Below, one piece after another: positions 2,893-38,924 of a DNA stretch of 55,660 nt. The notes beneath the pieces are model-generated. The model searched no databases, was not told the DNA's origin, and saw only the letters and a program-made list of their open reading frames with translations. The position numbers were made by a program, and so were the translations under genes. The DNA is taken from assembly GCA_018650165.1 (NCBI GenBank), contig JABIGM010000017.1, forward strand, positions 1 to 55,660. The letters are read 5' to 3'. Position 1 is the first letter of the stretch, and each line of letters opens with the position of its first letter. The stretch comes from Methanobacteriota archaeon. Lineage in GTDB: Archaea; Thermoplasmatota; Poseidoniia; Poseidoniales; Poseidoniaceae.

Positions 2893-5184
2893 ATGAGCAG
2901 TCCCCGTTTGCTGGTATTGTTGCTGGTCGGCCTGATGATTACCCCGGCTGTAATGGCAACTAATGGGCGAGCAGCACCGCAGTGTGCAGAATTTGATTTG
3001 TCTGATGTAGTCTCTTCAGGAGCGGGAGTGGCAGTAGATCCCGGGGCTTGTATTATTGTAGATCTCGGTGTTCGTAGTTATAGCACAACTTTAGCGATAG
3101 ACTACGAGATTATGGATGATGCGATGGATGTATTATTGTTTGATGAAAATGGTATTCAGACTTACAAGAATGGTCAAAACTATCGCAGTTCATTCATTGC
3201 CGAAGCGTCGTTTGAATCAATGATTGGAAGTGAGTGGCTAGATTGGACTCCTCCAGTTTCAATCAATGCCAAAAACTGGTATGTTGTGTTTGATAATGCC
3301 GCTCATGATGGTGACGAAGGAATGGGTGACCAAGGCGGTATGACTGCAAAATTCAAGATACAATTTGCACCTGCTTCAACAGAAGATTATTCTCTTTTAC
3401 ATGATACATTTATTGTGCAACCTGGAGAGAAAGTAAACCTAGCAACTTTCAGCGTGGACAGTGGTTCAGGGTTTTCATATTCTGCCCATCCAATTTCTGG
3501 AACTGGTGATATATTCATCCAATCGGACAACCAACTTGGTGGAAATTTGATTATTGCAGATACAAGTAGGGATGATTTTGGTGGTTCTGATTCACAATTA
3601 GATTGGATTATTCCAGAATTTTTAGATTTACAAAATCTAAATTTGATGGTTGAAGCAGGTCCAAATCCACTTCACTTTTCATTGGAAAGTTGGTTTGAAC
3701 CAGTATTATCGCCCGTGATTGTAGACTATTCTAATGGCACGACTTCGATAGGGCAAAAAGTCACTCTCGATGCTAGAGATACTCCAAATAGCTTACAGCA
3801 GATTAGAACTCTCTCATGGGATTTTGATGCAGACTCTTCCTACGATGCAATCGGCGATTTAGTCGAGGCATCTTGGGATACACCAGGGTTGAAAACAATC
3901 AATCTAACCGCTGAATCTGAGACTGGAGAAACTACGATGGTAAGCCATCAAATCGAAGTCATAGATATTTCAGACCCTGTTGCTGTAATCAGCGGTTCTG
4001 GAACGAGGGGATTGAATGGAGAATGGCGTTTATTACGTCTTTCGGATTTAGTTTTACAAGCATCAAACTCCTATGATGACCATGCGGTTTCTTCCGCATC
4101 TTGGAGTATTGATGGTGCTCCTATGTCATCAGCATCACAGTTTACTGTAAGTTGGTCACAAATTGGCACTTACGTTGCCACATTAACAGTAACCGATCCA
4201 TCTGGAAATACCGGTTCAATAAACTCTACAATCGTTGTCTATGATTCAACAGTACCTATCTTAGAAACTAGCGATATCGTGGAAATAAAAGAAGTATATC
4301 GAGGCGAAGAAATTGAATTTAAAGCAAAAGCTGTAGATCTGTGGGATGAGCAAAGCGCTCTCCGCTTCACGTGGGATTTAGATTTAGAAGTGGATTCAAA
4401 CAATGATGGCGACCTTCGTAATGACCCCGATGTGACAGGGCCAATTCTCATAACATCATTTGATTCGAATGGCGAACATGCATTTGCGCTCACTGTCTAT
4501 GATGGTTCAAATAATTCTGATTTTGAAGTGTTTAAACTTCAAGCAGTGGACCCTCCTAGTGAAACAAACTTATTCGGAATAGTTGCAATTATATTTTTAG
4601 TAATACTCGTAGTATTGGGTGTTGTTCTATTTGGATTCAAAGGAATACAGAGGAGACACGCAATCGAGATGTTGATGGAGAATGGTTTGTCGGCTGAAGA
4701 AGCAACACTAAGGGTACAAGAGATTGCAAGAACTACTAAATTACCACCATTTGCTAAAGCAGTACAAATGGCAGGAATGGCAGAAGGTACTGTTGTGAAA
4801 TCTTCAGTACAATTACAATCTGATGCTAAGCGAGCAGAAATGGATGCAATCTATGGTAATGACAATGGCTCACAAGTAGACCAGCATGCCGGTTTCAGGC
4901 CGAGTAGCCCAGTTAGACAAATAGATCCTGCATTCGCCGAAGCCGCTTTGGCAGCGTTCTCCGATGAGCCTCAGGCCAAACCAGTAGTAACTTCAACTCC
5001 GGTTTCAGGTAAAGTCAAGAGTGGAGGGGTAACTTTGCCAGGTGTTATCCCGCCTACAAACCATACACTGAAGAGTGATTGTACATCTTGCGGTAAAGCG
5101 TTTACAGTTACAATGCCGCAAGGAGTCAATAGTGCGGTTGTTGCTTGTCCCTCATGTGGAAGCGACCAATTGTTCGAACGGTGA
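2893..5184 (+). CDS. membrane-anchored PKD-domain surface protein with cytoplasmic C4 zinc ribbon
   Basis: Signal peptide; PKD-like repeats (LSWDFDAD, WDTPGLKTINLT, WSQIGTYVATLTVTD); TM helix near residue 575; terminal CTSC-x18-CPSC. Confidence 0.8.
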   Translation: MSSPRLLVLLLVGLMITPAVMATNGRAAPQCAEFDLSDVVSSGAGVAVDPGACIIVDLGVRSYSTTLAIDYEIMDDAMDVLLFDENGIQTYKNGQNYRSSFIAEASFESMIGSEWLDWTPPVSINAKNWYVVFDNAAHDGDEGMGDQGGMTAKFKIQFAPASTEDYSLLHDTFIVQPGEKVNLATFSVDSGSGFSYSAHPISGTGDIFIQSDNQLGGNLIIADTSRDDFGGSDSQLDWIIPEFLDLQNLNLMVEAGPNPLHFSLESWFEPVLSPVIVDYSNGTTSIGQKVTLDARDTPNSLQQIRTLSWDFDADSSYDAIGDLVEASWDTPGLKTINLTAESETGETTMVSHQIEVIDISDPVAVISGSGTRGLNGEWRLLRLSDLVLQASNSYDDHAVSSASWSIDGAPMSSASQFTVSWSQIGTYVATLTVTDPSGNTGSINSTIVVYDSTVPILETSDIVEIKEVYRGEEIEFKAKAVDLWDEQSALRFTWDLDLEVDSNNDGDLRNDPDVTGPILITSFDSNGEHAFALTVYDGSNNSDFEVFKLQAVDPPSETNLFGIVAIIFLVILVVLGVVLFGFKGIQRRHAIEMLMENGLSAEEATLRVQEIARTTKLPPFAKAVQMAGMAEGTVVKSSVQLQSDAKRAEMDAIYGNDNGSQVDQHAGFRPSSPVRQIDPAFAEAALAAFSDEPQAKPVVTSTPVSGKVKSGGVTLPGVIPPTNHTLKSDCTSCGKAFTVTMPQGVNSAVVACPSCGSDQLFER

Positions 5185-5248: not shown

Positions 5249-8200
5249 TTGATGTCAGCAGATAGTGTTCGCTTACTCCATCGTGGAGTTCCGCAACCAC
5301 TCGACTCTAGAAGAGTCGCAATCATGCTTGTCATAGTCATGTTTTTACCTATTTTCAACCCTGTTACTGCTGTAGAATCAGTGGGCCGAGATGATTTCGG
5401 CGTTCTTGAAGCGATGGCTAATGCGCTTGCCGAACAAAGAGACTCAGGGGAAGACGATATTGCACGTGATAGTGCAGAAGGAGTTTTGAGCGCTCTTGAA
5501 GCAAGAGGAAGGGAAATTGGTGATGGTGATGCCTTACTAGCAACCGATGGGATAATTGGCGATATTACAATGCGTCAAACTACACCTCTTGAACCACAAC
5601 ACCCGCGGCCCTATGTTTTCTTGACAGAACCAGACTCGCATCCTGATGGCTGGCCAAATAATTTGTTGGATACATTGTTTGAACTACCTCCGGACTTCAG
5701 TGATCCACTTGCATTCGGCGCTAACACATACTCGCTGTATGTCAATTATTCAGCCCGCAATAATGGGCCGCAATACGAAGCTTGGGATTATGGAACCTTT
5801 ACAGGTGATATAATCTCATTTGAGGGGACTGGATTATTTGAGAATGCAATTGACATCGATGGTGACAGTAATCCTGACATTGCAGTAGGTCTTTCCATTG
5901 TTGGTTTAGGGCAACAAGGAGAGGGTTGGGATGTAAACATGGGCGATGGTTTATTCCCTACAATTGAATCAATATGGGTCAGGCCTAATTTCCAATGGAA
6001 GGTTAGAGTACTCGACTATAACGACCCACTATGGGATGATATGGCAAGTATGGAAGTCTCTTTGATGAAAGGTGTTGCATACGACTTGACACTAACGACC
6101 GAAGGGGAATCATATGCACTAGTAATCGATTCAAGATTTACGCAACCCCCTCATGACTTCCAAGTGAGAGTAGGTCTCGACCAGATGACACTCAACGTTT
6201 CAGGTACAGTCACAACTCTATTAGATATTCTAAATATTTTTACTACAGGAGATGATTCTGCATTAGAGGTCACATCGGTTACAGCCCCTTATTCAATTAT
6301 GATTTCTAATCCAAATCGAAATTCAGCCAATGAACAAACCGATTGTGATGATTCTAGTTGGTATGACCCAGTACAAGATCACGGTGAAGAAAGCAGATTC
6401 CACAAATGTGGCTATTCAATTGGCATCGGTTTCGTCCATTTTGACCAACCAGATTTGGATGGAAACCGAGCGTTAGATGAAATTGGTTACATCGATGTAG
6501 GCCTCCACCCGATAGAAGGTAGTACTTTGATTCCTGAAGAAGTAGATTTAGTAATACGCAATGATAATGCTGGAGAAAACTCGTTTGATAATATCGAAAT
6601 TTATAGTGATACAGATTCCGATTTATGGTTCCATTATTTCGAAGATAGGTCTGCTCACATAGAAGAAGGTGGACAATTTGGGAATATTACCGATTCAAGA
6701 GGTTGGGTTCGTGATCTACCAAAAGGAACACTACCACAAGAAGAAATTGATGCGATTTTCACTCTCATCGGAGAAGCGCCAGGTTCTGCTAATCTACCGG
6801 GTGAAATGCCAAACCGCCTTTCATTGATTATTTCGATTAAGAACTATACTGCAGACAATTCGGCAAATATTGCCGATGGTTCACTCGTATTCAATCCAAG
6901 CGATAATCGCTGGAACAGTCTAATCTTAATTGCAGGTACTGAGAGGATTTCAAAAATTGAATATATATCTACATTCCAACGTTATGGTTATGAAATTGAC
7001 ACCTCGTCTATGGAAGTAGAAATCGTAGATTTACCTGAAGTAGTAGCTGTTTTCGGAACGTTTGAGATTCCATCTTCTAATCGGGTACGAGTAGAATTTG
7101 GGACCGCTCCAGACCTACTTAGTGAAGTTTTAGACAATATTATTCTCAATCTCGTCGAGATAGTTCTCGACCTGGGCACAATTTTGAATGGCCTACCTGG
7201 AGCAATTGTTGGAACTGCTGGCGAATCAAGCGGAGAAATCATACTTCAATTCTACAACCAAGTACGTGAGACGTGGGGTGATGGAACCACTCGTCAGGAA
7301 ATGACCGCTGGTAGCGTAAAGTTGGCTATAGGCAGTAGCCCCCACCCGGTACTGGATAGAAATCATATTATTCTCGGTGAAGATATAAACCAAACCGATG
7401 AACACGGTCATGTTGATGGAAAATATGGTTGGATAAACGACCCGTTGGTTCCGGTTGGTATGAGTTTGTCAATCACCAATATTTCTGGAGTTACATATGC
7501 GTATGACCAAGTTACAGATTTGCGTACAATCTCTCTATCTGGGCAATCGGGTGAAGAATTAATCATTGGTCATTTGAACCACTTTGCAAACACTACCGAT
7601 GGTGATGTAAGGCAATTTGCATCCATTTCCAATCGTCCAGAAAATTTGTCGATAAGTCAACAAGGAGCTGATATATTTTACTCAGCAACTGGTGAAATTG
7701 GAACAATCACTTACAGTGGTGAAGGCAATGGCCAATACAATGCACTACGCCTCAATGATTTACCAGCAGAGTTCCAACTAGAATTAGGTGATACAATTGG
7801 GTTTAGCGCTTCTGATGGCGTTGGTTCTGTCGAGGTACAGATCTCTAATGCTACGACGCCACTGACAATGGATGACGACCATGCAAGATTTTGGATAGAT
7901 CAAAACTCCGGAGAGGCAAGTATGTCTCTAAAACTATCAAATTTGACTTCGATTTACCTCTATCCACCTGATGAAGTTGGAGCTACTGGCGCAAGAGGAA
8001 ATAGCAAATTGGTAATGAATCGAACTGGCTCCTCTCCATTTAGCGTTCTTCTTGAAGATGTCAGCGATAGAGAAGATAAGTTCCTTGGATTATCCGGTAG
8101 AATCTATCTAGACCCTCTCCCAGCAAACGCAACACTTTCGTTGCCATCATCGGAAAAATCTGAAATTATTACAATACCAGAGTTTGGTGAAGCAGATGGA

Positions 8201-9901
8201 ATTCTTTCATTATCATTTTTCCTTTCAGGAATGATTAATTTCGGTTCTTCGGTAAATGATTTTGCAATTGAAAGCATGGTAAATTTGGGGGATGCCTCTA
8301 ATGTACGCAGCAATATGAGTCTAGGGATGGATTTGTACACTGGCGAAGAATTTGATATCACCCTAGATGTGAAGAAAGGAGTAAATGTACCCAATGAGCC
8401 AAAATGGGCACACGGATTGACAGGGGAAGTTCTTGAAGCGACAGATTTAGTTTTCGATTATTCTCGCATGACTAATTTTACTGAAAGTTCTCGCAATGTT
8501 GTTTCAAACGCTCTTAGCGATTTAGAGATAAATGAATCTGAGCGTGCAGACGTGATTACTGCATTGCAGTGGGGCGGGCTTAACAACAGCGCTGCGATAG
8601 TAGATGCGATGGCTGACGGCTATGTCTCATCCCGTGAGATGACACTCCTAGATTTGGATAAAATGTCATCAGATGGGCTAGAACTCGAACAGAGGCGCTC
8701 ATGGCATAGCAGAATATGGATGCCTCAATTACCAGCCGGTAGGATTCTACTTTCATATGATGTGAGCATTGATGGGGACATACCTACCTTTGAGATCACA
8801 TCATCTCTCGAGAATTGGACACCAGCAAGGCCAATACTAACTATCGAGATTAATGGTTTGTCACGTACCGACTCAATGCTTGTTCTTGCTGGGCTCGATA
8901 CAGATTTGAGCCGAGATATTTCTGTAAATATGGAAATTACTACTGAGTCAGAACTTATTATTCCTCGAACAACAATCGATCTGACCTATGAGATGGGCGA
9001 GAGAATGGATAATGCTAGAGTTATACAAAACAATAGACTACGTGGTATAAAAACCGAATTAATTCTATTCGATGCACCTCCAAGTGCCAATTTATATTCC
9101 AAGATTGGAGATATATTGCAAGCCGATTTGAATGTAACTCCTATGGACCGGGTTGGAGTAAATGCGGCGGAATCTTTGATGCTACAACAACTTCGCAAAG
9201 TCGATGGCCTTTGGTGGCCATCTACGATGTTCATACGCGATGTTCCTGGAGAAATGCATCTACTTGCTGAACCAGCAGAAGAGTTTGATATCCACGAAGT
9301 AAATTCATTCCAAGGAATGTTTGAAATGACATATTCATCAAATAGCGATGAGATGGACCTCTTTATCGAAACCAAAGGAAAAGCACAGAATACGCGTAGT
9401 AGCAATTTGATGCTGGCAGAAAATTTACCTGATAGATTTACAATGATGGTCACTGAAGATTTCGGTGCTAGCATTTCCGCTTCTGGTAATGGTGTTGAGA
9501 AACTTTACATCCGCCGAAGCGACACTTTGGTAAGAGAAAATGTGGAATTGGTTACAGCAGAAATGGTAGGTGAAAATCTACAGGGCGCTGAAGTCCATAT
9601 CCATAGCCTTCTGGGATATCCAGTTATTGTGGTTGATGGCATCACAGGTGGCCGTATAGTCGCAACCGCACAAACGAAGATTACCGTGGCAGGCACAGAG
9701 GTCGATGCGCGCGGCGTGTTACTCGATGCTCAATTTACCGGCGGAATTCCAACCGCCTCAAGCCTTGGAGTAAATGGTGTAGTCACTGATTTATCATTGA
9801 TCAGTAGTCTTACTGGTGGCAAGATTGAGACAACACACATCATGATTGTAGATCCATTCTCTTCGTTAATTGCAACCGGAATAGCGGCGGTGACGGGCTA
9901 A
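5249..9901 (+). CDS. giant (1550 aa) exported beta-rich hypothetical protein
   Basis: Long ORF with N-terminal hydrophobic segment; acidic, beta-rich composition; DIDGDSNPD Ca-binding-like motif; hydrophobic C-terminus. Confidence 0.8.
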   Translation: MMSADSVRLLHRGVPQPLDSRRVAIMLVIVMFLPIFNPVTAVESVGRDDFGVLEAMANALAEQRDSGEDDIARDSAEGVLSALEARGREIGDGDALLATDGIIGDITMRQTTPLEPQHPRPYVFLTEPDSHPDGWPNNLLDTLFELPPDFSDPLAFGANTYSLYVNYSARNNGPQYEAWDYGTFTGDIISFEGTGLFENAIDIDGDSNPDIAVGLSIVGLGQQGEGWDVNMGDGLFPTIESIWVRPNFQWKVRVLDYNDPLWDDMASMEVSLMKGVAYDLTLTTEGESYALVIDSRFTQPPHDFQVRVGLDQMTLNVSGTVTTLLDILNIFTTGDDSALEVTSVTAPYSIMISNPNRNSANEQTDCDDSSWYDPVQDHGEESRFHKCGYSIGIGFVHFDQPDLDGNRALDEIGYIDVGLHPIEGSTLIPEEVDLVIRNDNAGENSFDNIEIYSDTDSDLWFHYFEDRSAHIEEGGQFGNITDSRGWVRDLPKGTLPQEEIDAIFTLIGEAPGSANLPGEMPNRLSLIISIKNYTADNSANIADGSLVFNPSDNRWNSLILIAGTERISKIEYISTFQRYGYEIDTSSMEVEIVDLPEVVAVFGTFEIPSSNRVRVEFGTAPDLLSEVLDNIILNLVEIVLDLGTILNGLPGAIVGTAGESSGEIILQFYNQVRETWGDGTTRQEMTAGSVKLAIGSSPHPVLDRNHIILGEDINQTDEHGHVDGKYGWINDPLVPVGMSLSITNISGVTYAYDQVTDLRTISLSGQSGEELIIGHLNHFANTTDGDVRQFASISNRPENLSISQQGADIFYSATGEIGTITYSGEGNGQYNALRLNDLPAEFQLELGDTIGFSASDGVGSVEVQISNATTPLTMDDDHARFWIDQNSGEASMSLKLSNLTSIYLYPPDEVGATGARGNSKLVMNRTGSSPFSVLLEDVSDREDKFLGLSGRIYLDPLPANATLSLPSSEKSEIITIPEFGEADGILSLSFFLSGMINFGSSVNDFAIESMVNLGDASNVRSNMSLGMDLYTGEEFDITLDVKKGVNVPNEPKWAHGLTGEVLEATDLVFDYSRMTNFTESSRNVVSNALSDLEINESERADVITALQWGGLNNSAAIVDAMADGYVSSREMTLLDLDKMSSDGLELEQRRSWHSRIWMPQLPAGRILLSYDVSIDGDIPTFEITSSLENWTPARPILTIEINGLSRTDSMLVLAGLDTDLSRDISVNMEITTESELIIPRTTIDLTYEMGERMDNARVIQNNRLRGIKTELILFDAPPSANLYSKIGDILQADLNVTPMDRVGVNAAESLMLQQLRKVDGLWWPSTMFIRDVPGEMHLLAEPAEEFDIHEVNSFQGMFEMTYSSNSDEMDLFIETKGKAQNTRSSNLMLAENLPDRFTMMVTEDFGASISASGNGVEKLYIRRSDTLVRENVELVTAEMVGENLQGAEVHIHSLLGYPVIVVDGITGGRIVATAQTKITVAGTEVDARGVLLDAQFTGGIPTASSLGVNGVVTDLSLISSLTGGKIETTHIMIVDPFSSLIATGIAAVTG

Positions 9902-31423: not shown

Positions 31424-32167
31424 ATGCGCCAACCCCTGCCGCGAGTTCCGAAGGACCGTATTGCGGTCTTGATAGGTGCTAATGGTACCACAAGGCGGGA
31501 GCTTGAGAAAGCAGCAGGTTGTAAGCAAATCCAAATCGATTCTGGTACTGGAGATATTGAAGTTACATGGCCAGAAGCAGGGGGATATGACCCTGTGAAA
31601 GCCCTAAAATTACCAGATGTAATCAAGGCAGTTGGACGCGGAATGGCGCCTAGTAGGGCGATTCAATTACTCCAAGACGAGTGGTTTTTCGAAATGGTAG
31701 ATTTGCGAGACCATGTTGGTAAGAGGTCAAACCAGCAGCGTAGAATCCGTGCTAGAATTATTGGATCTGAAGGTAAAATTCGCAAGATGATCGAGCAGCA
31801 TACCAGTACCGAAATTTCAATTTACAAATCCACAGTTGTTCTTGTTGGCGAAGGCTCGGGTCTGATTAGTGCACGCCAAGCGATAGAGATGTTAGCCAGC
31901 GGTAGTGAGCATGGTACTGTAATCAAATATTTAGAAAAAGAGCGTAGAAAATCACGACTTGAATCACGTTCAATTGATTATATTGAGACTAAAGAATCGA
32001 CTCCGGAATCTGAAGAATTTGCTGATTTAGTTCCTGGGCTGGCTGAAGTTACTCAAAGGCGTAACCGTCGTTTGAAGGCTGCTCAAGTAGACCCCGAAAA
32101 CGCAGATGCAGTATTCGAGATGATGGAATTAGCAGAGGATGAAGAAATCAACTGGGAGGAGGAGTGA
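31424..32167 (+). CDS. dim2: Dim2/Pno1-like KH-domain pre-rRNA processing protein
   Basis: RIAVLIGANG, AVGRGM, RARIIGSEGK, GSEHGTV motifs; gene context. Confidence 0.9.
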   Translation: MRQPLPRVPKDRIAVLIGANGTTRRELEKAAGCKQIQIDSGTGDIEVTWPEAGGYDPVKALKLPDVIKAVGRGMAPSRAIQLLQDEWFFEMVDLRDHVGKRSNQQRRIRARIIGSEGKIRKMIEQHTSTEISIYKSTVVLVGEGSGLISARQAIEMLASGSEHGTVIKYLEKERRKSRLESRSIDYIETKESTPESEEFADLVPGLAEVTQRRNRRLKAAQVDPENADAVFEMMELAEDEEINWEEE

Positions 32168-33962
32168 CTCTCCTTCTCTGATACCAAGCGATAACAAATC
32201 CAACAGCCAATATGGAAATTATTCCTGGTGTAAATGAAGATACGACGCCGACTCCACTAACACTTGCTCCAGTCACCATAAGATGGTGATTATTGTTTGA
32301 CTCATCCCTTTCATCAACAATATTTGATGGGTCGATAACCAATCGTAAATCCCATTGCCCAGTATTTGGAACTACGTAATCCCAAACCATTTCCTCACAA
32401 TGGCATTCATCTGATAGGTTTCCATTTTCAATAACAATTGTTTGCATTGTAATCCAGTCAATATCTGCGCTACGGTCTGCAGGGGCTGCTTGTAGGTAAA
32501 CTGTAACAGCACCACCATATGCTTGATTTGCTTCTAATCTACTGGTGATTACAATATCACCATTCATTTCACCAGGTCTAACAATCAATCTATCAACATT
32601 AGTTTCAGTGGCATTCCACGATAAGTCTAATCCCGGTAGAATCTGGAATGCACTAGGAATAGAAGTTAATTGATTACCAGCATCATCTGTAACAATGGCT
32701 CGTAGCATCAAGTATTGTCTCGATTTAGTTGCCCAAGAGGATAGGCCAACGGTGCCATCTAGTCCAGTGACTCCAAGGTCAATCCATCGGCCCGATTGGT
32801 CAGGAGTTGCTCCAACACCATTCAAGTCAAATCCATATTGGATCTTCGAATTATCTAAATCTAGACCTGCGCCAAGATCTTGGGCAGCAAATGAAATATT
32901 TACTGAACCAACAAGGCTTGTCGTTAACTCATCAACAGTCCAACCAAGTCCCTCGGGCTCTGTAACATCCACTTTGATATCCACATCGAGCGTGTTACCA
33001 ACATTTCCAACAACGTCAATAGCACGTATTGAAATTACATGCTCGCCTTCTTCGAAATTAAGAGTTGTACTGGATGTTGTGACATCACTCCAAACTCCAT
33101 CTTGCAAAATTTGCACGTAATCAATTCCAGACCCTGAGCCATCATCTGCGGCAGTATCCAATCCTGAAATTGTCACAGCAGTACTATCGCTCCAATCGCC
33201 ACCAGCGCCGATAGTTGGCGTTGACATTGTAGGGGAGGTTCTATCAATTCCAATAAACATCGTTTGGCTAGAAGATAGTCCTGAACCATCCCATACAGTT
33301 AGGCGAGGATTGTATGTTCCTTCTGCGATTGCTCCAGTACTCCAGTCCCATCCATAGGCGATAGTGCCAGGGCCATCATCACTAGGCGAACCTGGGCCAG
33401 GTACATTTGCCAAAATAGCATGAGTCAAATCATCATCATTAGCAGTCCAAGTAAATCCAAGAGTTCCATTGGCAGGTAAGTAATACCATGCTCTATCAAT
33501 AGCTGAGGTTCCACTGCCGACACCCGAATTGGAAAGTTCGAATGATGTGATTACAGGAACTTGGTTTACAATATTGAAATTACCGCTAGTGAACCATAGT
33601 GTGTGGTTTGATACATCAGAATCCCATGCACGAGCCCTGAAAGTCCAACTTCCGTTTGCATACGCTGTTGTATCTACATGGGTCAACCAAGGAGTTGTGG
33701 TTAAGTTTGCCACTGATGACCAATTACTGCCATCTGATGAGATATCAACTTCAAGGCTAGATATTGTCCCACTACCGCCTGAAGCGAAACTCAAAGTGAA
33801 CAATCCCTTGACATTTTGGTCTTGCGTAGGCCCATTTGCGAAGGCAAGAGTAAGTTCACTATCGGCGGATTTCACCAATTTTGAATCCAGAAGTAGCACC
33901 TCGCCACTCTGTCCAATAGTCATGATGACTACGACCAGAATTGCAGAGATGAATCGCCTCAT
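32148..33962 (-). CDS. exported Ig-like/CARDB surface protein with C-terminal TM plus basic anchor
   Basis: Signal peptide MRRFISAILVVVIM; beta-rich Ig-like repeats; CARDB-like IDPSNIVDERDESNN; terminal TM plus RRR. Confidence 0.8.
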   Translation of the reverse strand: MRRFISAILVVVIMTIGQSGEVLLLDSKLVKSADSELTLAFANGPTQDQNVKGLFTLSFASGGSGTISSLEVDISSDGSNWSSVANLTTTPWLTHVDTTAYANGSWTFRARAWDSDVSNHTLWFTSGNFNIVNQVPVITSFELSNSGVGSGTSAIDRAWYYLPANGTLGFTWTANDDDLTHAILANVPGPGSPSDDGPGTIAYGWDWSTGAIAEGTYNPRLTVWDGSGLSSSQTMFIGIDRTSPTMSTPTIGAGGDWSDSTAVTISGLDTAADDGSGSGIDYVQILQDGVWSDVTTSSTTLNFEEGEHVISIRAIDVVGNVGNTLDVDIKVDVTEPEGLGWTVDELTTSLVGSVNISFAAQDLGAGLDLDNSKIQYGFDLNGVGATPDQSGRWIDLGVTGLDGTVGLSSWATKSRQYLMLRAIVTDDAGNQLTSIPSAFQILPGLDLSWNATETNVDRLIVRPGEMNGDIVITSRLEANQAYGGAVTVYLQAAPADRSADIDWITMQTIVIENGNLSDECHCEEMVWDYVVPNTGQWDLRLVIDPSNIVDERDESNNNHHLMVTGASVSGVGVVSSFTPGIISILAVGFVIAWYQRRRVTPPPS

Positions 33963-34103
33963 CAAACCCGTGACACCACCCCTCGCCCTTGAATGCTCGC
34001 ATTGCAACACCCCCCTTCGGGGTGTGTTGGCTATTGTTAATACACAGCGGTAGCCGTTCTCACAGTCGGTTGTTTCAAGTGCTACCCCTTGCCTCTTGTG
34101 TAC

Positions 34104-36872
34104 ATGGCAAGGCCATTTTTGACCACTCTCATCCTGACAATGATGGTTCTTGCAGTAATGCCATTGTCTACTATGGCGGAAGATAGCGGTGGGGTACAAG
34201 CATCAGCATCTACCGTTTCAATTTCACCTTCAGAGCCAGTTGAAGGTGGCTCGATCACAATCCGCCTTACATTGTATAACTCCAATAATTTTGCTGCAAA
34301 CGATGTACTGTACAAGTTTTATTGGGATGGAGTTGAATCAAATAAACTCATAGTTGCCGACACGGTTGATATTCCAGCCGAAGAAACAGTTGATGTTGAA
34401 AAGGTAAAATCTGGACTTACAGTTGGCGAGCATAAGGTATGGATCACCTATGAATATGCAGGTAGCGGCGAAGAAATGTTTTACTCTGAAATCGTAGTTG
34501 GTGGACTTGCAGACTTAGAAGCTACAACTATTACTACCAGTCCAGAATCTCTTAATTCAGGAGATTCGGTTTTAGTATCTACTGAGGTGAGTAATACAGG
34601 CTCAGAAAACGCCTCAGCAAGCCGGTTACAATTAGACCTAGATACACAGAGTGAAATTGTCAATGTCGATGCAATTCCAGCCGGTGAAAGCATTTGGGTT
34701 AACCACTATATGGTCGCTCCCTCTTCAGGCAGTCACGATGTTTCTGTTACATTAGATTTAGACGACGCTGTGGTTGAAGCAGATGAAAATAATGTATTCA
34801 CTTCCTCGCTCTCAGTTACCGCAAGAATGGATATTTATCATGTTGGAGATATTTTGATTGAAGCCGATTCTGGGGCTTTACAAGGCCCGTGGATTGTAAC
34901 AGGTTCATTGGAAAGAAGTGGTGGCAGCGGAGTAACAGAAGTGCCAATGAAACTCGTCATCAAGGATGAGTCCGGACAAGATTTACCATTACCTACATTC
35001 ACTGTAAATATTAGCGGAGGATCACTAACCCAGCAGGCTTGGACATTTACTATAACTTACGATTATGTTTCGGTACTAGCACCGGGTAACCACCAAGTGT
35101 CTGCAGTAATCGATCCTTACCAAACTGCGAGTTTTATTCAAGAATCAACCGACAATGACCAAGCAATAGCCTACTTTGATAAATTTGCAGTTCCCGATGT
35201 GTCTGTAGACCCATATGCATCTCCTTCACGAACTTCAGTTATTAGTGGAAGCAATGTTGACTGGACAGTGACCATAATCAATTCAGGACAAATAGAAGTG
35301 AAAGGCCGTTTAATCTATACTTGGGAAGGGCAAACTGTTAGCGATATAAGTCAACCAACAATTACAATTCAGGCTGGGGATACACATATTTGGAACGAAC
35401 CACTTCCTACAGAGAGTGGTGCTCACCAAGCGGAATTTTCTGCCCAGTGGGTGCCGTTGTCAAGTTCCTACGACTCTAATCCATTGAACTCCATAGCAAA
35501 CGGAAGCATCGAAGTCACTGCCCAGTTAAGATTGGTCTGGTCAAAGGCTTCAATGTCACTAGTTGATTCAGAAGGTGAAGCAGCAATATTCCCATTAGAT
35601 GGTGGGGAAGAATATACAGTTTCAATAAATCTTGCCGCACAAGAAACAGGTGCTGTAAATTATTCATGTGAAAATGCGATGGGACAAGTATTCGAAGAAA
35701 TAGAACTAATCATTACAGAGAGCGGCGAATTCTTGACAGTTAACTGCACATTTACTGCTACTGCACCATTCACAAACATCAATCTCATTCCAAGTGATAA
35801 CAAAGTAAGTTCGACACAAACATGGAATTGGGATTCGAAAGAATCCAGTTCGAATGTTGCCGATGAAGCAGGTAATATGCCATTACAAACTGCAGGGATG
35901 ATCGCTCTGATTTGTTTAGCTTTAGTTGCAATATTAATCGCTGCTGTAATTCTGACTAGAGAAACGGAGGAAGACGTTGACAGAGATATCTTCGATTACT
36001 GTCCAGCATGTGATGGAGAACTCGACGGAGATGAAGACCGCTGTCCTTCTTGTTCTTTCAATCTCAAGAAAGCCAGAAAACAATTCCACGATTGCGAAAC
36101 ATGTAGCGAACCGGTTCCGGATTTGTTGTCAAATTGTCCATATTGTGGAACTCCTCAGGATGTTTCCAAGTACTTTGAACAGCGTGAACAAAGAATCGTT
36201 GAGAAAAAGACAATCGCGCTTATCGATGAAGAAGAAATCAATCCTGAAGATATTCATGCAACCGGTTACGAAGGCTTCGATGAAGCAATCAAAGAATTTG
36301 GTTATGATGCCGAAGACTTGGAAGGTAATTGGGATGCGAATATTGCTAAAGCAGAGGCGGATGTTGAGGCTGCATATGATCGTAAGATGGCTGCTGAAGA
36401 AGAATCCAACCTTGATGATGAAGAGGCACTTGCAACTGTTACTACCAGTCTGAAAAGTATGGAAGAAACATTCGAAGGACATGACATCGATGCAATCTTA
36501 GCGGATAAGGACATCAAATCTCATGCAGATGATGGTGGCGAATTAAGTGCTAGTGATGCAGAAATCCGTGAGAGACTATTCGAAATTACCGGCGAAGAGG
36601 GTGTAATGCCTGGTGACGAAGTTAACATTGGCATGGGGATTCAAGATCGTTCACTTGCTGGAAATGTCTTACCTGAAGACGCGATGGATTTCTCATTAGA
36701 TGAAGAAGATGATGAAATCAATCCAGTCGCAGCAGCAACTGCCGAGACAAAACGTCGAAGAGGAGTACGCCGTAGATCTAAGCAAGCCAAGACTGCTGAA
36801 TGTGGCGCCTGTGGAGCAGACCTCTCTGAAGACGCAAATGAATGTTCAACATGCGGTGCTAAGTTTGAGTAA
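34104..36872 (+). CDS. single-pass protein: CARDB/Ig ectodomain, cytoplasmic double zinc ribbon, acidic region, terminal zinc ribbon
   Basis: Signal peptide; LDDAVVEADENN and IQESTDND CARDB motifs; TM near residue 610; six CxxC pairs. Confidence 0.85.
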   Translation: MARPFLTTLILTMMVLAVMPLSTMAEDSGGVQASASTVSISPSEPVEGGSITIRLTLYNSNNFAANDVLYKFYWDGVESNKLIVADTVDIPAEETVDVEKVKSGLTVGEHKVWITYEYAGSGEEMFYSEIVVGGLADLEATTITTSPESLNSGDSVLVSTEVSNTGSENASASRLQLDLDTQSEIVNVDAIPAGESIWVNHYMVAPSSGSHDVSVTLDLDDAVVEADENNVFTSSLSVTARMDIYHVGDILIEADSGALQGPWIVTGSLERSGGSGVTEVPMKLVIKDESGQDLPLPTFTVNISGGSLTQQAWTFTITYDYVSVLAPGNHQVSAVIDPYQTASFIQESTDNDQAIAYFDKFAVPDVSVDPYASPSRTSVISGSNVDWTVTIINSGQIEVKGRLIYTWEGQTVSDISQPTITIQAGDTHIWNEPLPTESGAHQAEFSAQWVPLSSSYDSNPLNSIANGSIEVTAQLRLVWSKASMSLVDSEGEAAIFPLDGGEEYTVSINLAAQETGAVNYSCENAMGQVFEEIELIITESGEFLTVNCTFTATAPFTNINLIPSDNKVSSTQTWNWDSKESSSNVADEAGNMPLQTAGMIALICLALVAILIAAVILTRETEEDVDRDIFDYCPACDGELDGDEDRCPSCSFNLKKARKQFHDCETCSEPVPDLLSNCPYCGTPQDVSKYFEQREQRIVEKKTIALIDEEEINPEDIHATGYEGFDEAIKEFGYDAEDLEGNWDANIAKAEADVEAAYDRKMAAEEESNLDDEEALATVTTSLKSMEETFEGHDIDAILADKDIKSHADDGGELSASDAEIRERLFEITGEEGVMPGDEVNIGMGIQDRSLAGNVLPEDAMDFSLDEEDDEINPVAAATAETKRRRGVRRRSKQAKTAECGACGADLSEDANECSTCGAKFE

Positions 36873-37017: not shown

Positions 37018-37584
37018 ATGATGAGACCTCGCCATGCCATGTCAGCCGTCATCATGTTGTCCATTTTAATGGCATCAAGCATGGGCTGTATCGGCTTGGT
37101 CCCAGCGCGTGAATTCATGGAGGATTTACGCGACCCTCCTATTCTGGTTGAGGTAGTCGAAAAAATAAACGTTGAACACGTATTTGTCACCGACATCACC
37201 AATGTTCAAGCTACAACCTCTTATTCGAGTGTCCAAACCTTTACAGTTGATTCTGATGTTACAGAAATCAGTGCTTATATCACTGCAGCAATGCCATTAG
37301 AATTAATTTTGCCAGGAATACCAACAGAAGTTAGATATGTGAAAGCAACCTTAACAGATGCAAATGGTGATCAAGTTTGGATTGAAGAAATCACTGAAAC
37401 AGAAAGAAAGATGGTTGCAACATTTCAACAACCTCTCGCTGAAGGAATTTGGACACTTAGTGTCGAAGCTAGGGGCTATGGTGAAGAGATAGCGAACCTG
37501 TACAAAGATTCATTCCAAGTACTGGTCAAAATCGATAGGGAGTGCTGGCAGTACCCCAATGAAATCGGTTGTTCTTACAATTGA
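37018..37584 (+). CDS. putative lipoprotein
   Basis: Basic N-terminus, hydrophobic core, archaeal lipobox-like SMGC; SD GGAGGGG. Confidence 0.75.
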   Translation: MMRPRHAMSAVIMLSILMASSMGCIGLVPAREFMEDLRDPPILVEVVEKINVEHVFVTDITNVQATTSYSSVQTFTVDSDVTEISAYITAAMPLELILPGIPTEVRYVKATLTDANGDQVWIEEITETERKMVATFQQPLAEGIWTLSVEARGYGEEIANLYKDSFQVLVKIDRECWQYPNEIGCSYN

Positions 37585-38763
37585 TTAGGCCAGGCTTGAA
37601 TCACAGGCATACTTCCGTGAGCAATTCTCACATTTGCCCTTTCTATTGTGATTCCTTTCAGCTCCACCCTCAGACATTAACCTTTGAATTTCTTTAACTG
37701 CTGAAAATAAAACATGTTTATTGCTGTCATCCCATTCGATTGTATGGAGATTTTCAGTTCCATATCGCAGAACACCATATGGTGGTTTACGATTGGTTGT
37801 TGATTCCACTAAATGTAGGTAGGCTAGAAGTTGCATCTTGTGGGATTTGTGTGGCCTATCTGGGATTTTACCAGTTTTCTGTTCGACTGGAATGAATTCG
37901 CCTTCCACGATTACAATCTGGTCAGGCCTACCACGTAATCCCGTAGATGTATCCACAAGAACCCCAGCAGTTGTTTCGTCATCAGAATAAACAACATCTA
38001 CATCTTCCTTAATTCCCGCATCAATTCTTGCAACTTCAAGTGCGTTATCCACTAATAGGGCACGTTGTAACTGCCATGACGCTAGTAGAGTCCATATCAT
38101 TGCAACAGCCACTAATATGAAACCGGCTTGTTGTTTATTTTCTGCCCAAATTAATCCGATTGCATGTAATCCAAATATTGTAGCGCCAATCAAGAACCCG
38201 GCTTCTACTTTACCACCTTGCCCCCATCCCCCAATGAATCCATAGGGCTCAATTGTATGTGGTAAATTGATATCGTCTAGGCCACTTACTCCATTCATAC
38301 CTTCCGAATCTTCAATCGGGTAATTCAACCATTTTCTCCACGGAAGGTAAATTGCGAGTAAACCTATTGCCAACCAAATAAGTGCAAGTATCGTGAGATA
38401 TTGTGAGATATCAACTGGTGATATATCATCAGAAATATTACTGAAAATAATAGAATCTGATATGAAAATAATCACTATGGCAAACCACCAAGACCAGATC
38501 ACTAATGCACGTTTCAATTCATTTTGTTTTTGTTTGAATTCTCTCACTTTACTGTGCATCTGAGCATGTTTTTCTCGGCCGATATTAATTGCTTTACCGC
38601 GCCCAGAGATACCTTCTCTGGCTAGCGACCAAGACAGTGGACAATAGGCGTGTCTCTCAAGATCACTAGCAGATACATGGAGTGCCTTTCCATCACTATC
38701 CCTCCAAAAACCATCATCGCCTTCCTCTGCGATATCAGATATTTTGGTAGAACCTTTGGCCAT
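37585..38763 (-). CDS. solo Cas4-like PD-(D/E)xK nuclease with four inserted TM helices
   Basis: SASDLERHAYCP, GREKH, GRPD, EQK, HKMQLLAY and C-terminal CENCSRKYAC (Fe-S staple Cys); four hydrophobic segments at about residues 86-232. Confidence 0.85.
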   Translation of the reverse strand: MAKGSTKISDIAEEGDDGFWRDSDGKALHVSASDLERHAYCPLSWSLAREGISGRGKAINIGREKHAQMHSKVREFKQKQNELKRALVIWSWWFAIVIIFISDSIIFSNISDDISPVDISQYLTILALIWLAIGLLAIYLPWRKWLNYPIEDSEGMNGVSGLDDINLPHTIEPYGFIGGWGQGGKVEAGFLIGATIFGLHAIGLIWAENKQQAGFILVAVAMIWTLLASWQLQRALLVDNALEVARIDAGIKEDVDVVYSDDETTAGVLVDTSTGLRGRPDQIVIVEGEFIPVEQKTGKIPDRPHKSHKMQLLAYLHLVESTTNRKPPYGVLRYGTENLHTIEWDDSNKHVLFSAVKEIQRLMSEGGAERNHNRKGKCENCSRKYACDSSLA

Positions 38764-38924
38764 GTTTTATCCCGCCCAGTATGGCCCGTGTCTTCAATTT
38801 GCCATCAAGGTTATGCCTACACGCTTGACATGATTTTCGTAGTACTGCGCTTTGAAATCGATTTTACTTACTACGAAGCGGTTATTTAGGGGTGGATGGT
38901 GGCCCGAATGCTGGAGTTAATGCT

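Follow-up and report, generated by a model that had tools for sequence, protein, structure and literature searches.

Nucleases of the Cas4 family are known as soluble enzymes of CRISPR adaptation, of DNA repair and of viruses, and the question raised by the locus described here is what such an enzyme may be doing when its domain appears to be interrupted by a set of transmembrane (TM) helices. The locus lies in a stretch of 55,660 nucleotides, referred to in this work as the window, which corresponds to positions 1 to 55,660 of contig JABIGM010000017.1 (assembly GCA_018650165.1) of a Methanobacteriota archaeon belonging to the Poseidoniaceae (Thermoplasmatota, Poseidoniia, Poseidoniales). The gene of interest occupies positions 37585..38763 of the minus strand and, according to the list of open reading frames (ORFs) and its translation, specifies a protein of 392 residues with an ATG start and a stop codon at 37585-37587. 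A first reading of the letters alone, denoted here as the original prediction, had described it as a membrane-embedded, Cas4-like nuclease standing outside any CRISPR locus. On the basis of the evidence presented below, we propose, with a probability of about 0.6, that its product is a Cas4-family nuclease (iron-sulphur, or Fe-S, and PD-(D/E)XK type) integral to the membrane and without any link to CRISPR, which is predicted to be active at the inner face of the membrane.

A Cas4 domain interrupted by predicted membrane hairpins

The sequence attributes of the Cas4 family are found in two separate parts of the protein. The N-terminal segment (residues 1-85, 38509..38763, minus strand) was delimited from its motifs and their invariance, from the alignment to the canonical Cas4 proteins 4R5Q and 8D3L and from a structural match with a Z-score of 19.7. 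It contains a short beta extension, the first putative Fe-S cysteine (Cys41, encoded at 38641-38643, within the YCP of an AYCP motif at residues 39-42) and a helix with the GxxxH signature (GREKH, from G62 to H66; 38566-38580). The catalytic PD-(D/E)XK core and the C-terminal cysteine cluster occupy residues 250-392 (37588..38016, minus strand), as indicated by the Cas4 models of Pfam, NCBIfam and PADLOC and by the fold match, and include, on the same strand, GRPD (residues 278-281; 37921-37932), the ExK motif EQK (294-296; 37876-37884), the QxxxY motif QLLAY (311-315; 37819-37833) and the CxxCx5C cluster CENCSRKYAC (378-387; 37603-37632). The family profiles recognize the second part: the match to Pfam Cas_Cas4 (PF01930; 42.8 bits against a cut-off of 22.7) and the marginal one to TIGR00372 (65.8 against a cut-off of 65) are both limited to residues 262-388, and PDDEXK_1 also matches within these boundaries only. 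Among the models of PADLOC-DB 2.0, those for Cas4 matched the protein with an E-value of 2e-19, and a weaker match corresponded to DruK, the PD-(D/E)XK protein of Druantia.

An alignment of 43 sequences, with identities down to 25%, revealed that Y40, C41, P42, G278, P280, K296, H308, Q311, C378, C381 and C387 are invariant, and that G62, H66, D281, E294 and Y315 are at least 90% conserved. Therefore, the statement that all Cas4 hallmarks are present was confirmed both by the position of the motifs and by their conservation. The complete motif set of the family (H66, D281, E294/K296, Q311 and Y315) is conserved at 90-100%, and the conservation of the catalytic residues holds for the 43 relatives as well as for 63 Poseidoniales orthologues. 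The four-cysteine arrangement typical of Cas4 is likewise found (C41 plus C378, C381 and C387), the spacing of the first cysteine being stretched by the insert.

An AlphaFold (AF2) model built on the 43-sequence alignment (predicted local distance difference test, pLDDT, 84.7; predicted template-modelling score, pTM, 0.78) displays four long helices, spanning residues 57-109, 116-139, 182-206 and 210-249. When residues 10-392 of the model were compared with residues 5-200 of the 7MI4 Cas4 by means of VIA-align, 182 residues superimposed with a Z-score of 19.7 and a root-mean-square deviation of 2.5 Å; further matches were 8D3L (Z 18.9), AdnA (14.1), Exo5 (13.3), SSO0001 (12.9), Dna2 (12) and 4R5Q (10.1), and Foldseek likewise returned fold matches to the nuclease domains of Cas4, AdnA, Exo5 and Dna2. 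Hence, the model predicts that both halves of the sequence come together as a single Cas4 domain, as the original prediction had anticipated, and closure of the Fe-S site would follow solely from this superposition of the whole domain. In the model, the helix that bears His66 appears to run unbroken into TM1, and TM4 into a stalk helix that reaches the core. Because of this continuity, the nuclease domain looks rigidly coupled to the membrane part and not loosely tethered to it.

What separates the two parts of the domain is a hydrophobic insert of approximately 160 residues (about 86-245), placed after the GxxxH helix and before the core, at a position where sequence alignment assigns merely a short link to canonical Cas4 proteins (4R5Q, 8D3L). 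Four segments pass a hydropathy threshold (Kyte-Doolittle mean above 1.6 in windows of 19 residues), with peaks at residues 88-106, 122-140, 188-206 and 214-232, and the corresponding hydrophobic helices fall within residues 86-233, approximately. The original prediction had placed about 150 residues with four TM helices directly after the first cysteine; the number of helices held, whereas the length and the position had to be corrected, and the four helices do not form a generic bundle. As judged from sequence, the insert is made of two homologous tandem copies of a TM hairpin of about 60 residues. Copy 1 (residues 80-145, 38329..38526, minus strand), defined by hydropathy, hhalign and a hairpin profile, consists of TM1 (about 86-106), an outer turn (107-121) and TM2 (about 122-142). 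Copy 2 (residues 180-240, 38044..38226, minus strand) contains TM3 (about 188-206) and TM4 (about 214-233). When both copies were aligned to each other with hhalign, the probability was 97.2% (E-value 4e-11), compared with 5.8% for the reversed control, and the hairpin profile matched copy 1 with an E-value of 5.7e-10 and copy 2 with one of 5.2e-14. Across six genomes this profile matched this gene alone, save for one marginal match (E-value 3e-4). The predicted cytoplasmic loop that joins the two copies (residues 143-187, 38203..38337, minus strand) is specific to Poseidoniales, is missing from short relatives with four TM helices and is modelled with low confidence at residues 152-178.

The inspection of 145 hairpin units yielded a signature consisting of a cytoplasmic Glu followed by a first helix in which small residues abound and towards whose outer end there is a polar position. 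This position is often Asn-Gly, and corresponds to S104 (TM1) and H200 (TM3) in the window protein. The second helix bears an 'A-L-x-W-L' motif, whose Trp is present in 117 of 144 units. Among the 63 Poseidoniales orthologues, the most conserved region of the protein is TM4, with a mean identity of 77%, compared with 71% for the catalytic core; D103, which lies within TM1 and adjoins S104, is invariant in this set, as are W90, W92, PWR141-143, GGW178-180, G184, E187, W224 and T225. Since such conservation and repetition would not be needed by a plain anchor, we infer that the hairpin module is more than that, and that it mediates specific helix packing or oligomerization. Assembly would probably be driven through the small-residue and polar packing motifs of the hairpins.

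The original prediction had also argued that an even number of TM helices would return both halves of the domain to the same side of the membrane, and this argument is borne out by the relatives, whose complete forms contain two, four or eight helices and never an odd number. Counting Lys plus Arg in the helix flanks and loops gave 6.2 residues on the nuclease side versus 0.8 on the other side for relatives with two helices (the bias being observed in 9 of 10 proteins), 11.1 versus 1.7 for those with four (28 of 28) and 25.2 versus 3.8 for those with eight (13 of 13), that is, a six- to seven-fold enrichment. Under the positive-inside rule, this bias predicts that the nuclease domain faces the cytoplasm, a location that also fits an Fe-S protein.

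Architectural variants, distribution and independence from CRISPR

The relatives can be sorted into classes with two TM helices (about 260-285 residues), four (about 320-410) and eight (about 500-600), and in all of them the insert, made of one, two or four copies of the hairpin, keeps the same position, after the GxxxH helix and ahead of the core. In the eight-helix forms, the four units match each other with probabilities of 97-98% and E-values from 1e-10 to 1e-14 (reversed controls, 1-6% and approximately 0.01-0.06), and profile-profile comparison shows that the two hairpins of the window protein match these units as well; the AlphaFold model of an eight-helix form is weak (pLDDT 68.8, pTM 0.52). 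A further variant, in which the protein is split between two genes, was seen in three metagenome contigs (L127, L128 and L129). In L127, a 90-residue N-terminal half containing the YCP cysteine, the GxxxH helix and one TM helix (3721-3993, plus strand) is followed by a 182-residue C-terminal half with one TM helix and the full core (3969-4517, plus strand), the two ORFs overlapping by 25 nucleotides. The neighbouring genes in the contigs with the split form look archaeal (Trm5, KaiC-like and SepSecS-like). Because the break falls at the outer turn of the hairpin, rebuilding the enzyme requires that the helices contributed by the two halves pair with each other within the membrane. Relatives of about 170 residues with one TM helix had been considered N-terminally truncated bacterial forms, which turned out to be wrong for the fetched cluster (those labelled as Anaerolineae being left out): its members correspond to the C-terminal half of the split form. 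A search for shorter homologues yielded fragments only.

One lineage of eight-helix forms carries TRAM domains (PF01938) C-terminal to the cysteine cluster. These were detected with an E-value of 2e-15, in two stretches, in the gene at L108:2467-4647 (minus strand) and protein P0218, and with an E-value of 6e-6, in one weaker stretch, in L109:2582-4705 (minus strand). TRAM is an OB-like (oligonucleotide/oligosaccharide-binding-like) domain that binds single-stranded nucleic acids and is known mainly from RNA enzymes, and this fusion hints at a single-stranded nucleic-acid substrate, possibly RNA.

More than 1100 homologues of the nuclease were retrieved. The best 120 are 74-100% identical to it (the top one being the window's own protein), have 389-426 residues and come from marine metagenomes, one of them being named Candidatus Poseidoniaceae archaeon. 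In the host genome (1.75 Mb in 66 contigs, 80% complete) this is the single Cas4-like gene. Full-length orthologues were found in 130 of the 201 Poseidoniales genomes sampled, and this observation rules out that the gene is an artefactual fusion of separate genes. The gene is present in all 99 other genomes of the window's own family, in both genomes of a second family and in 28 of 99 genomes of a third, sister family. It was not found in seven genera of the latter, whose listed genomes measure 1.3-1.6 Mb, and a profile search of five genomes from five of these gene-less genera gave no match. Across Thermoplasmatota, matches to the family profile were obtained in 214 of 301 genomes and, counted by genus, in 101 of 137 (E-value of 1e-5 or better), figures that represent an upper bound because the profile can also score canonical Cas4. 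The database names of the members are generic, such as 'Cas4', 'Dna2/Cas4 domain-containing protein' or 'PD-(D/E)XK nuclease family protein'. A member of 323 residues (ADD08116.1, annotated as 'CRISPR-associated protein Cas4') is encoded in the complete genome of Aciduliprofundum boonei (1,486,778 bp), where it coexists with a separate, canonical Cas4 of 164 residues.

When a tree was built from 96 cores, the three canonical Cas4 proteins included split from all membrane forms with a Shimodaira-Hasegawa-like approximate likelihood ratio (SH-aLRT) support of 95 and very long branches. The backbone of this tree is weak, with 44 of 89 branches below 80, and the three outgroup sequences, which come from two genomes, are too few for a firm claim of monophyly of the membrane forms. 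The tree shows that the predicted number of TM helices changed several times in the family. Taken as a whole, this is an old family, which has been inherited vertically across Thermoplasmatota and is for the most part present in a single copy. Two exceptional copies were noted. At G062:C6:85813-86945, a second gene copy, matched in pieces and interrupted by three in-frame TGA codons, accompanies an intact one and is a rare duplicate decaying to a pseudogene. A copy 52% identical to the Poseidoniales gene was found in L067 (CAXRJJ010000133.1), from a metagenome-assembled genome labelled as Yoonia sp. (Alphaproteobacteria), and is most likely a binning contaminant.

With regard to CRISPR, the window contains no tandem repeats and no Rfam match, CRISPR models included, and Cas1 was not found in the 80%-complete host genome, in line with the initial description of a solo gene without cas1 or array. 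In the same set of 201 Poseidoniales genomes of which 130 carry the nuclease gene, Cas1 was found in just one. The nuclease is not the Cas4 of a CRISPR adaptation module, as it is not encoded with cas1 and cas2 beside an array. Among viruses, a search of the IMG/VR contigs with two peptide patterns found no relative, and BFVD returned soluble Cas4 and PD-(D/E)XK nucleases only, with a query TM-score not above 0.40 and no full-length fold.

Genomic neighbourhood

Eighty Poseidoniales loci were compared. In 69-79 of them the same gene order is kept, namely a CARDB/zinc-ribbon gene (forward), a gene for a small secreted protein (forward), the nuclease gene (reverse), rps2 (forward) and dus (forward), the last of which has the reverse orientation in certain loci that are more distant. 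The divergent arrangement of the nuclease gene and rps2 is found in 79 of the 80 loci, and in the window both genes have in common an intergenic region of 128 bp (38764..38891) that, from the gene layout, is presumed to contain the promoters. On the other side, the convergent neighbour (37018..37584, plus strand), considered here as context only, encodes a putative secreted or lipoprotein-like protein of 188 residues for which no Pfam family scored above cut-off. It adjoins the nuclease gene in 77 of the 80 loci and was not found beside it in 19 loci from other Thermoplasmatota. The stop codons of the two genes abut (37584/37585), with zero intergenic bases, so the two convergent transcripts must overlap or terminate inside each other. 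Given that it converges with the gene downstream and diverges from rps2, the nuclease gene is probably monocistronic.

Further away (34089-36872, plus strand), a gene encodes a protein of 927 residues in which a signal-like segment at the N-terminus is accompanied by CARDB repeats and a single TM helix, and whose acidic tail, on the cytoplasmic side, has three zinc-ribbon motifs (DZR, Zn_Ribbon_1). An extracellular, adhesin-like part is thus joined to an intracellular zinc-ribbon tail, which is an unusual combination; the gene lies next to the locus in 75 of the 80 Poseidoniales loci. The remainder of the window is an ordinary Marine Group II chromosome, with genes for subtilase and PKD surface proteins, antiporter-type membrane subunits of complex I (nuoL/M/N-like), beta-oxidation enzymes and a PHO4 transporter. 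Two large ORFs, at 5249-9901 (plus strand, 1550 residues) and 32148-34199 (minus strand, 683 residues), gave no Pfam match at an E-value of 1e-5, and the former sits amid genes for PKD, subtilase and CARDB surface proteins.

The original prediction had suggested synteny with the lipoprotein gene and rps2 as a check. This synteny is conserved inside Poseidoniales, but the context changes completely in other lineages, and for this reason it provides no functional link. The neighbours outside Poseidoniales are differing housekeeping genes (GlmS/GlmU, Trm1, Trm5, an MBL-fold hydrolase, GyrB, Sir2, prepilin peptidase and others), with rpl15e located directly upstream in several eight-helix lineages, and a conserved partner gene was discarded because these neighbours differ between lineages. 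No helicase, ATPase, cas or defence gene was found among the annotated neighbours in 19 loci outside Poseidoniales, and PADLOC gave no match for the two neighbours scanned, both on the downstream side. Translation-related neighbours recur, although by a rough count not clearly above chance. Overall, the gene has the appearance of a housekeeping-type one passed on vertically, and not that of a member of a defence island.

Possible functions and relation to known systems

According to our proposal, the protein would be an active, metal-dependent (Mn/Mg) Fe-S nuclease, cutting or trimming nucleic acid that is single-stranded or has ends, its action taking place at the inner face of the cell membrane and its hairpins driving assembly. 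As for the substrate, linear DNA arriving through the membrane or held at it, be it viral, plasmid or environmental, is the candidate to which we would tentatively turn, and membrane-attached chromosomal or replication ends are possible, though we would not count on them. Soluble Cas4 and lambda-exonuclease form toroids. The Solo-Cas4 of M. mazei is described as an Fe-S, Mn/Mg-dependent DNA nuclease that forms an oligomer of about 318 kDa (PMC12501428), and by analogy the window protein may possibly form an oligomeric, perhaps ring-shaped, membrane assembly. It is conceivable, if rather unlikely, that the hairpins assemble the subunits into a membrane ring in which a nuclease toroid would close off a membrane pore or detect changes in the membrane's state, and that the membrane part could gate the active site through the His66 helix, which continues into TM1; if true, this would represent a new kind of nuclease-coupled membrane machine importing, exporting or destroying nucleic acid in abundant ocean archaea.

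Several other explanations have to be weighed against the evidence. Enzymes of the Cas4 family act on DNA ends, and a member held at the membrane and predicted to face the cytoplasm could provide an innate defence at the gate, destroying the free ends of DNA from viruses or plasmids on its entry and acting as a RecBCD-like first line in archaea almost devoid of Cas1; the weaker PADLOC match to DruK would fit such a role. We nevertheless consider this role doubtful, since single-copy, syntenic and vertically inherited genes in housekeeping surroundings do not resemble defence genes, no defence genes lie nearby, no relative in viral contigs suggests an arms race and the transcripts of the M. mazei solo-Cas4 reportedly did not respond to virus challenge (PMC12501428). 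The core-like distribution and the synteny would fit a housekeeping role in DNA metabolism, such as the resection or trimming of membrane-attached chromosomal ends or of replication or recombination intermediates, and the coexistence with a separate canonical CRISPR Cas4 in Aciduliprofundum boonei suggests that the membrane form has a job of its own. A search of 63 Poseidoniales genomes did not find NurA, and these archaea may therefore require some other 5'-3' nuclease. However, the specific idea that the membrane nuclease replaces NurA had to be rejected, because both genes co-occur in many other families and their distributions do not complement each other. Nor is the gene linked to Mre11/Rad50, to helicases or to genes of replication, and no reason is known for making such a nuclease an integral membrane protein, which leaves this housekeeping role as a possibility that we would not regard as likely either.

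A role in the turnover or processing of RNA at the membrane, for instance of transcripts translated there, would give a meaning to the fusion with TRAM (E-value 2e-15), a domain typical of RNA-binding enzymes, and to the presence of translation-related neighbours (rps2 and Dus here, rpl15e in eight-helix lineages, Trm5 and Trm1 elsewhere). RNA is nonetheless an improbable substrate: to our knowledge, all characterized enzymes of the Cas4 family are DNases, the fusion represents one event in one lineage, its OB-like fold could also bind single-stranded DNA, and the translation genes are not operon partners and recur without clearly exceeding chance. Finally, the TM segments might simply localize the protein, or the nuclease activity might have been lost, the protein now serving as a scaffold or as a redox sensor based on Fe-S. 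The even number of helices would be accounted for by anchoring alone, and the M. mazei solo-Cas4, which reportedly retains activity without its cluster (PMC12501428), illustrates that the cluster could have another role. Still, a single helix suffices to anchor a protein, yet the hairpin is conserved, family-specific and repeated one, two or four times, TM4 is more conserved than the core and the catalytic residues are all invariant; a mere anchor or an inactive relic thus appears very improbable.

The proposal of an integral-membrane Cas4-family nuclease active at the inner membrane face has, in turn, several points that weigh against it. Everything said about the substrate, the topology, the oligomeric state, the activity as a nuclease and the binding of Fe-S is prediction; the gene is dispensable in the small-genome genera of the sister family, as deduced from the failure to find it there; no conserved neighbour, phyletic partner or fusion partner, except for TRAM in one lineage, indicates a pathway; vertical inheritance in a housekeeping neighbourhood disfavours a typical defence gene; and the TRAM fusion keeps RNA among the possible substrates.

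Marine Group II, whose members almost never carry CRISPR, ranks with the most abundant archaeal groups of the surface ocean. A membrane-built version of Cas4 has been kept in them and across their phylum. Should the enzyme prove active on the inner side of the membrane, it would define an unrecognized step of nucleic-acid handling at the archaeal envelope, which could belong to defence, to uptake, to repair or to the turnover of RNA. A set of natural experiments on protein architecture is also provided by the family, in which one domain is interrupted by one, two or four TM hairpins or split at the turn of a hairpin, and the existence of a cultured organism with a 323-residue member, Aciduliprofundum boonei T469, makes the question testable.

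With respect to known systems, the nuclease family itself is well established and its proteins are databased under Cas4 names, whereas no description of the membrane hairpin-repeat design was found. This architecture is absent from Pfam and NCBIfam, and a literature search, whose coverage did not extend to most subscription journals, yielded no paper on a membrane-integral Cas4, which agrees with the initial impression that it had not been characterized. A multi-TM module with a DNA-acting part at the membrane is found in ComEC and in the KwaA/KwaB proteins of Kiwa (PMC11785009). The likeness is by analogy only, as there is no relation in sequence or fold: the nuclease of ComEC is a metallo-beta-lactamase domain, and Kiwa is composed of two proteins without a Cas4 domain. 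AddB/AdnA, Dna2 and Exo5 contain the same Cys-stapled nuclease domain (Z-scores of 12-14) and none of them is membrane-bound. In AddB/AdnA and Dna2 the domain is fused to a helicase or translocase, while no helicase domain was detected in the window protein, nor among the annotated neighbours in the window or in the 19 other loci.

The closest relationship is with the Cas4 of CRISPR systems (PF01930/TIGR00372/COG1468; 7MI4, 8D3L, 4IC1 for SSO0001 and 4R5Q for Pcal_0546), with which the window protein has in common the PD-(D/E)XK fold (Z-scores of 10.1-19.7), the metal ligands (His, Asp and Glu-x-Lys), the QxxxY motif and the combination of one N-terminal Cys with a CxxCx5C cluster. It differs from them in the presence of a membrane module of 160 residues where canonical Cas4 has a short connection, in the absence of cas1/cas2 or an array, in that hidden Markov models match its C-terminal part only, and in that Aciduliprofundum boonei possesses the membrane form as a paralogue distinct from its canonical Cas4. 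With the solo-Cas4 genes surveyed by Hudaiberdiev et al. in 2017 (PMC5704561), the likeness resides in being Cas4-family genes located away from any cas locus. The word 'transmembrane' is never used in that survey, and its single use of 'membrane' concerns an unrelated neighbour gene. The solo-Cas4 proteins described so far are soluble, whereas the one encoded in the window is predicted to be an integral membrane protein with four TM helices.

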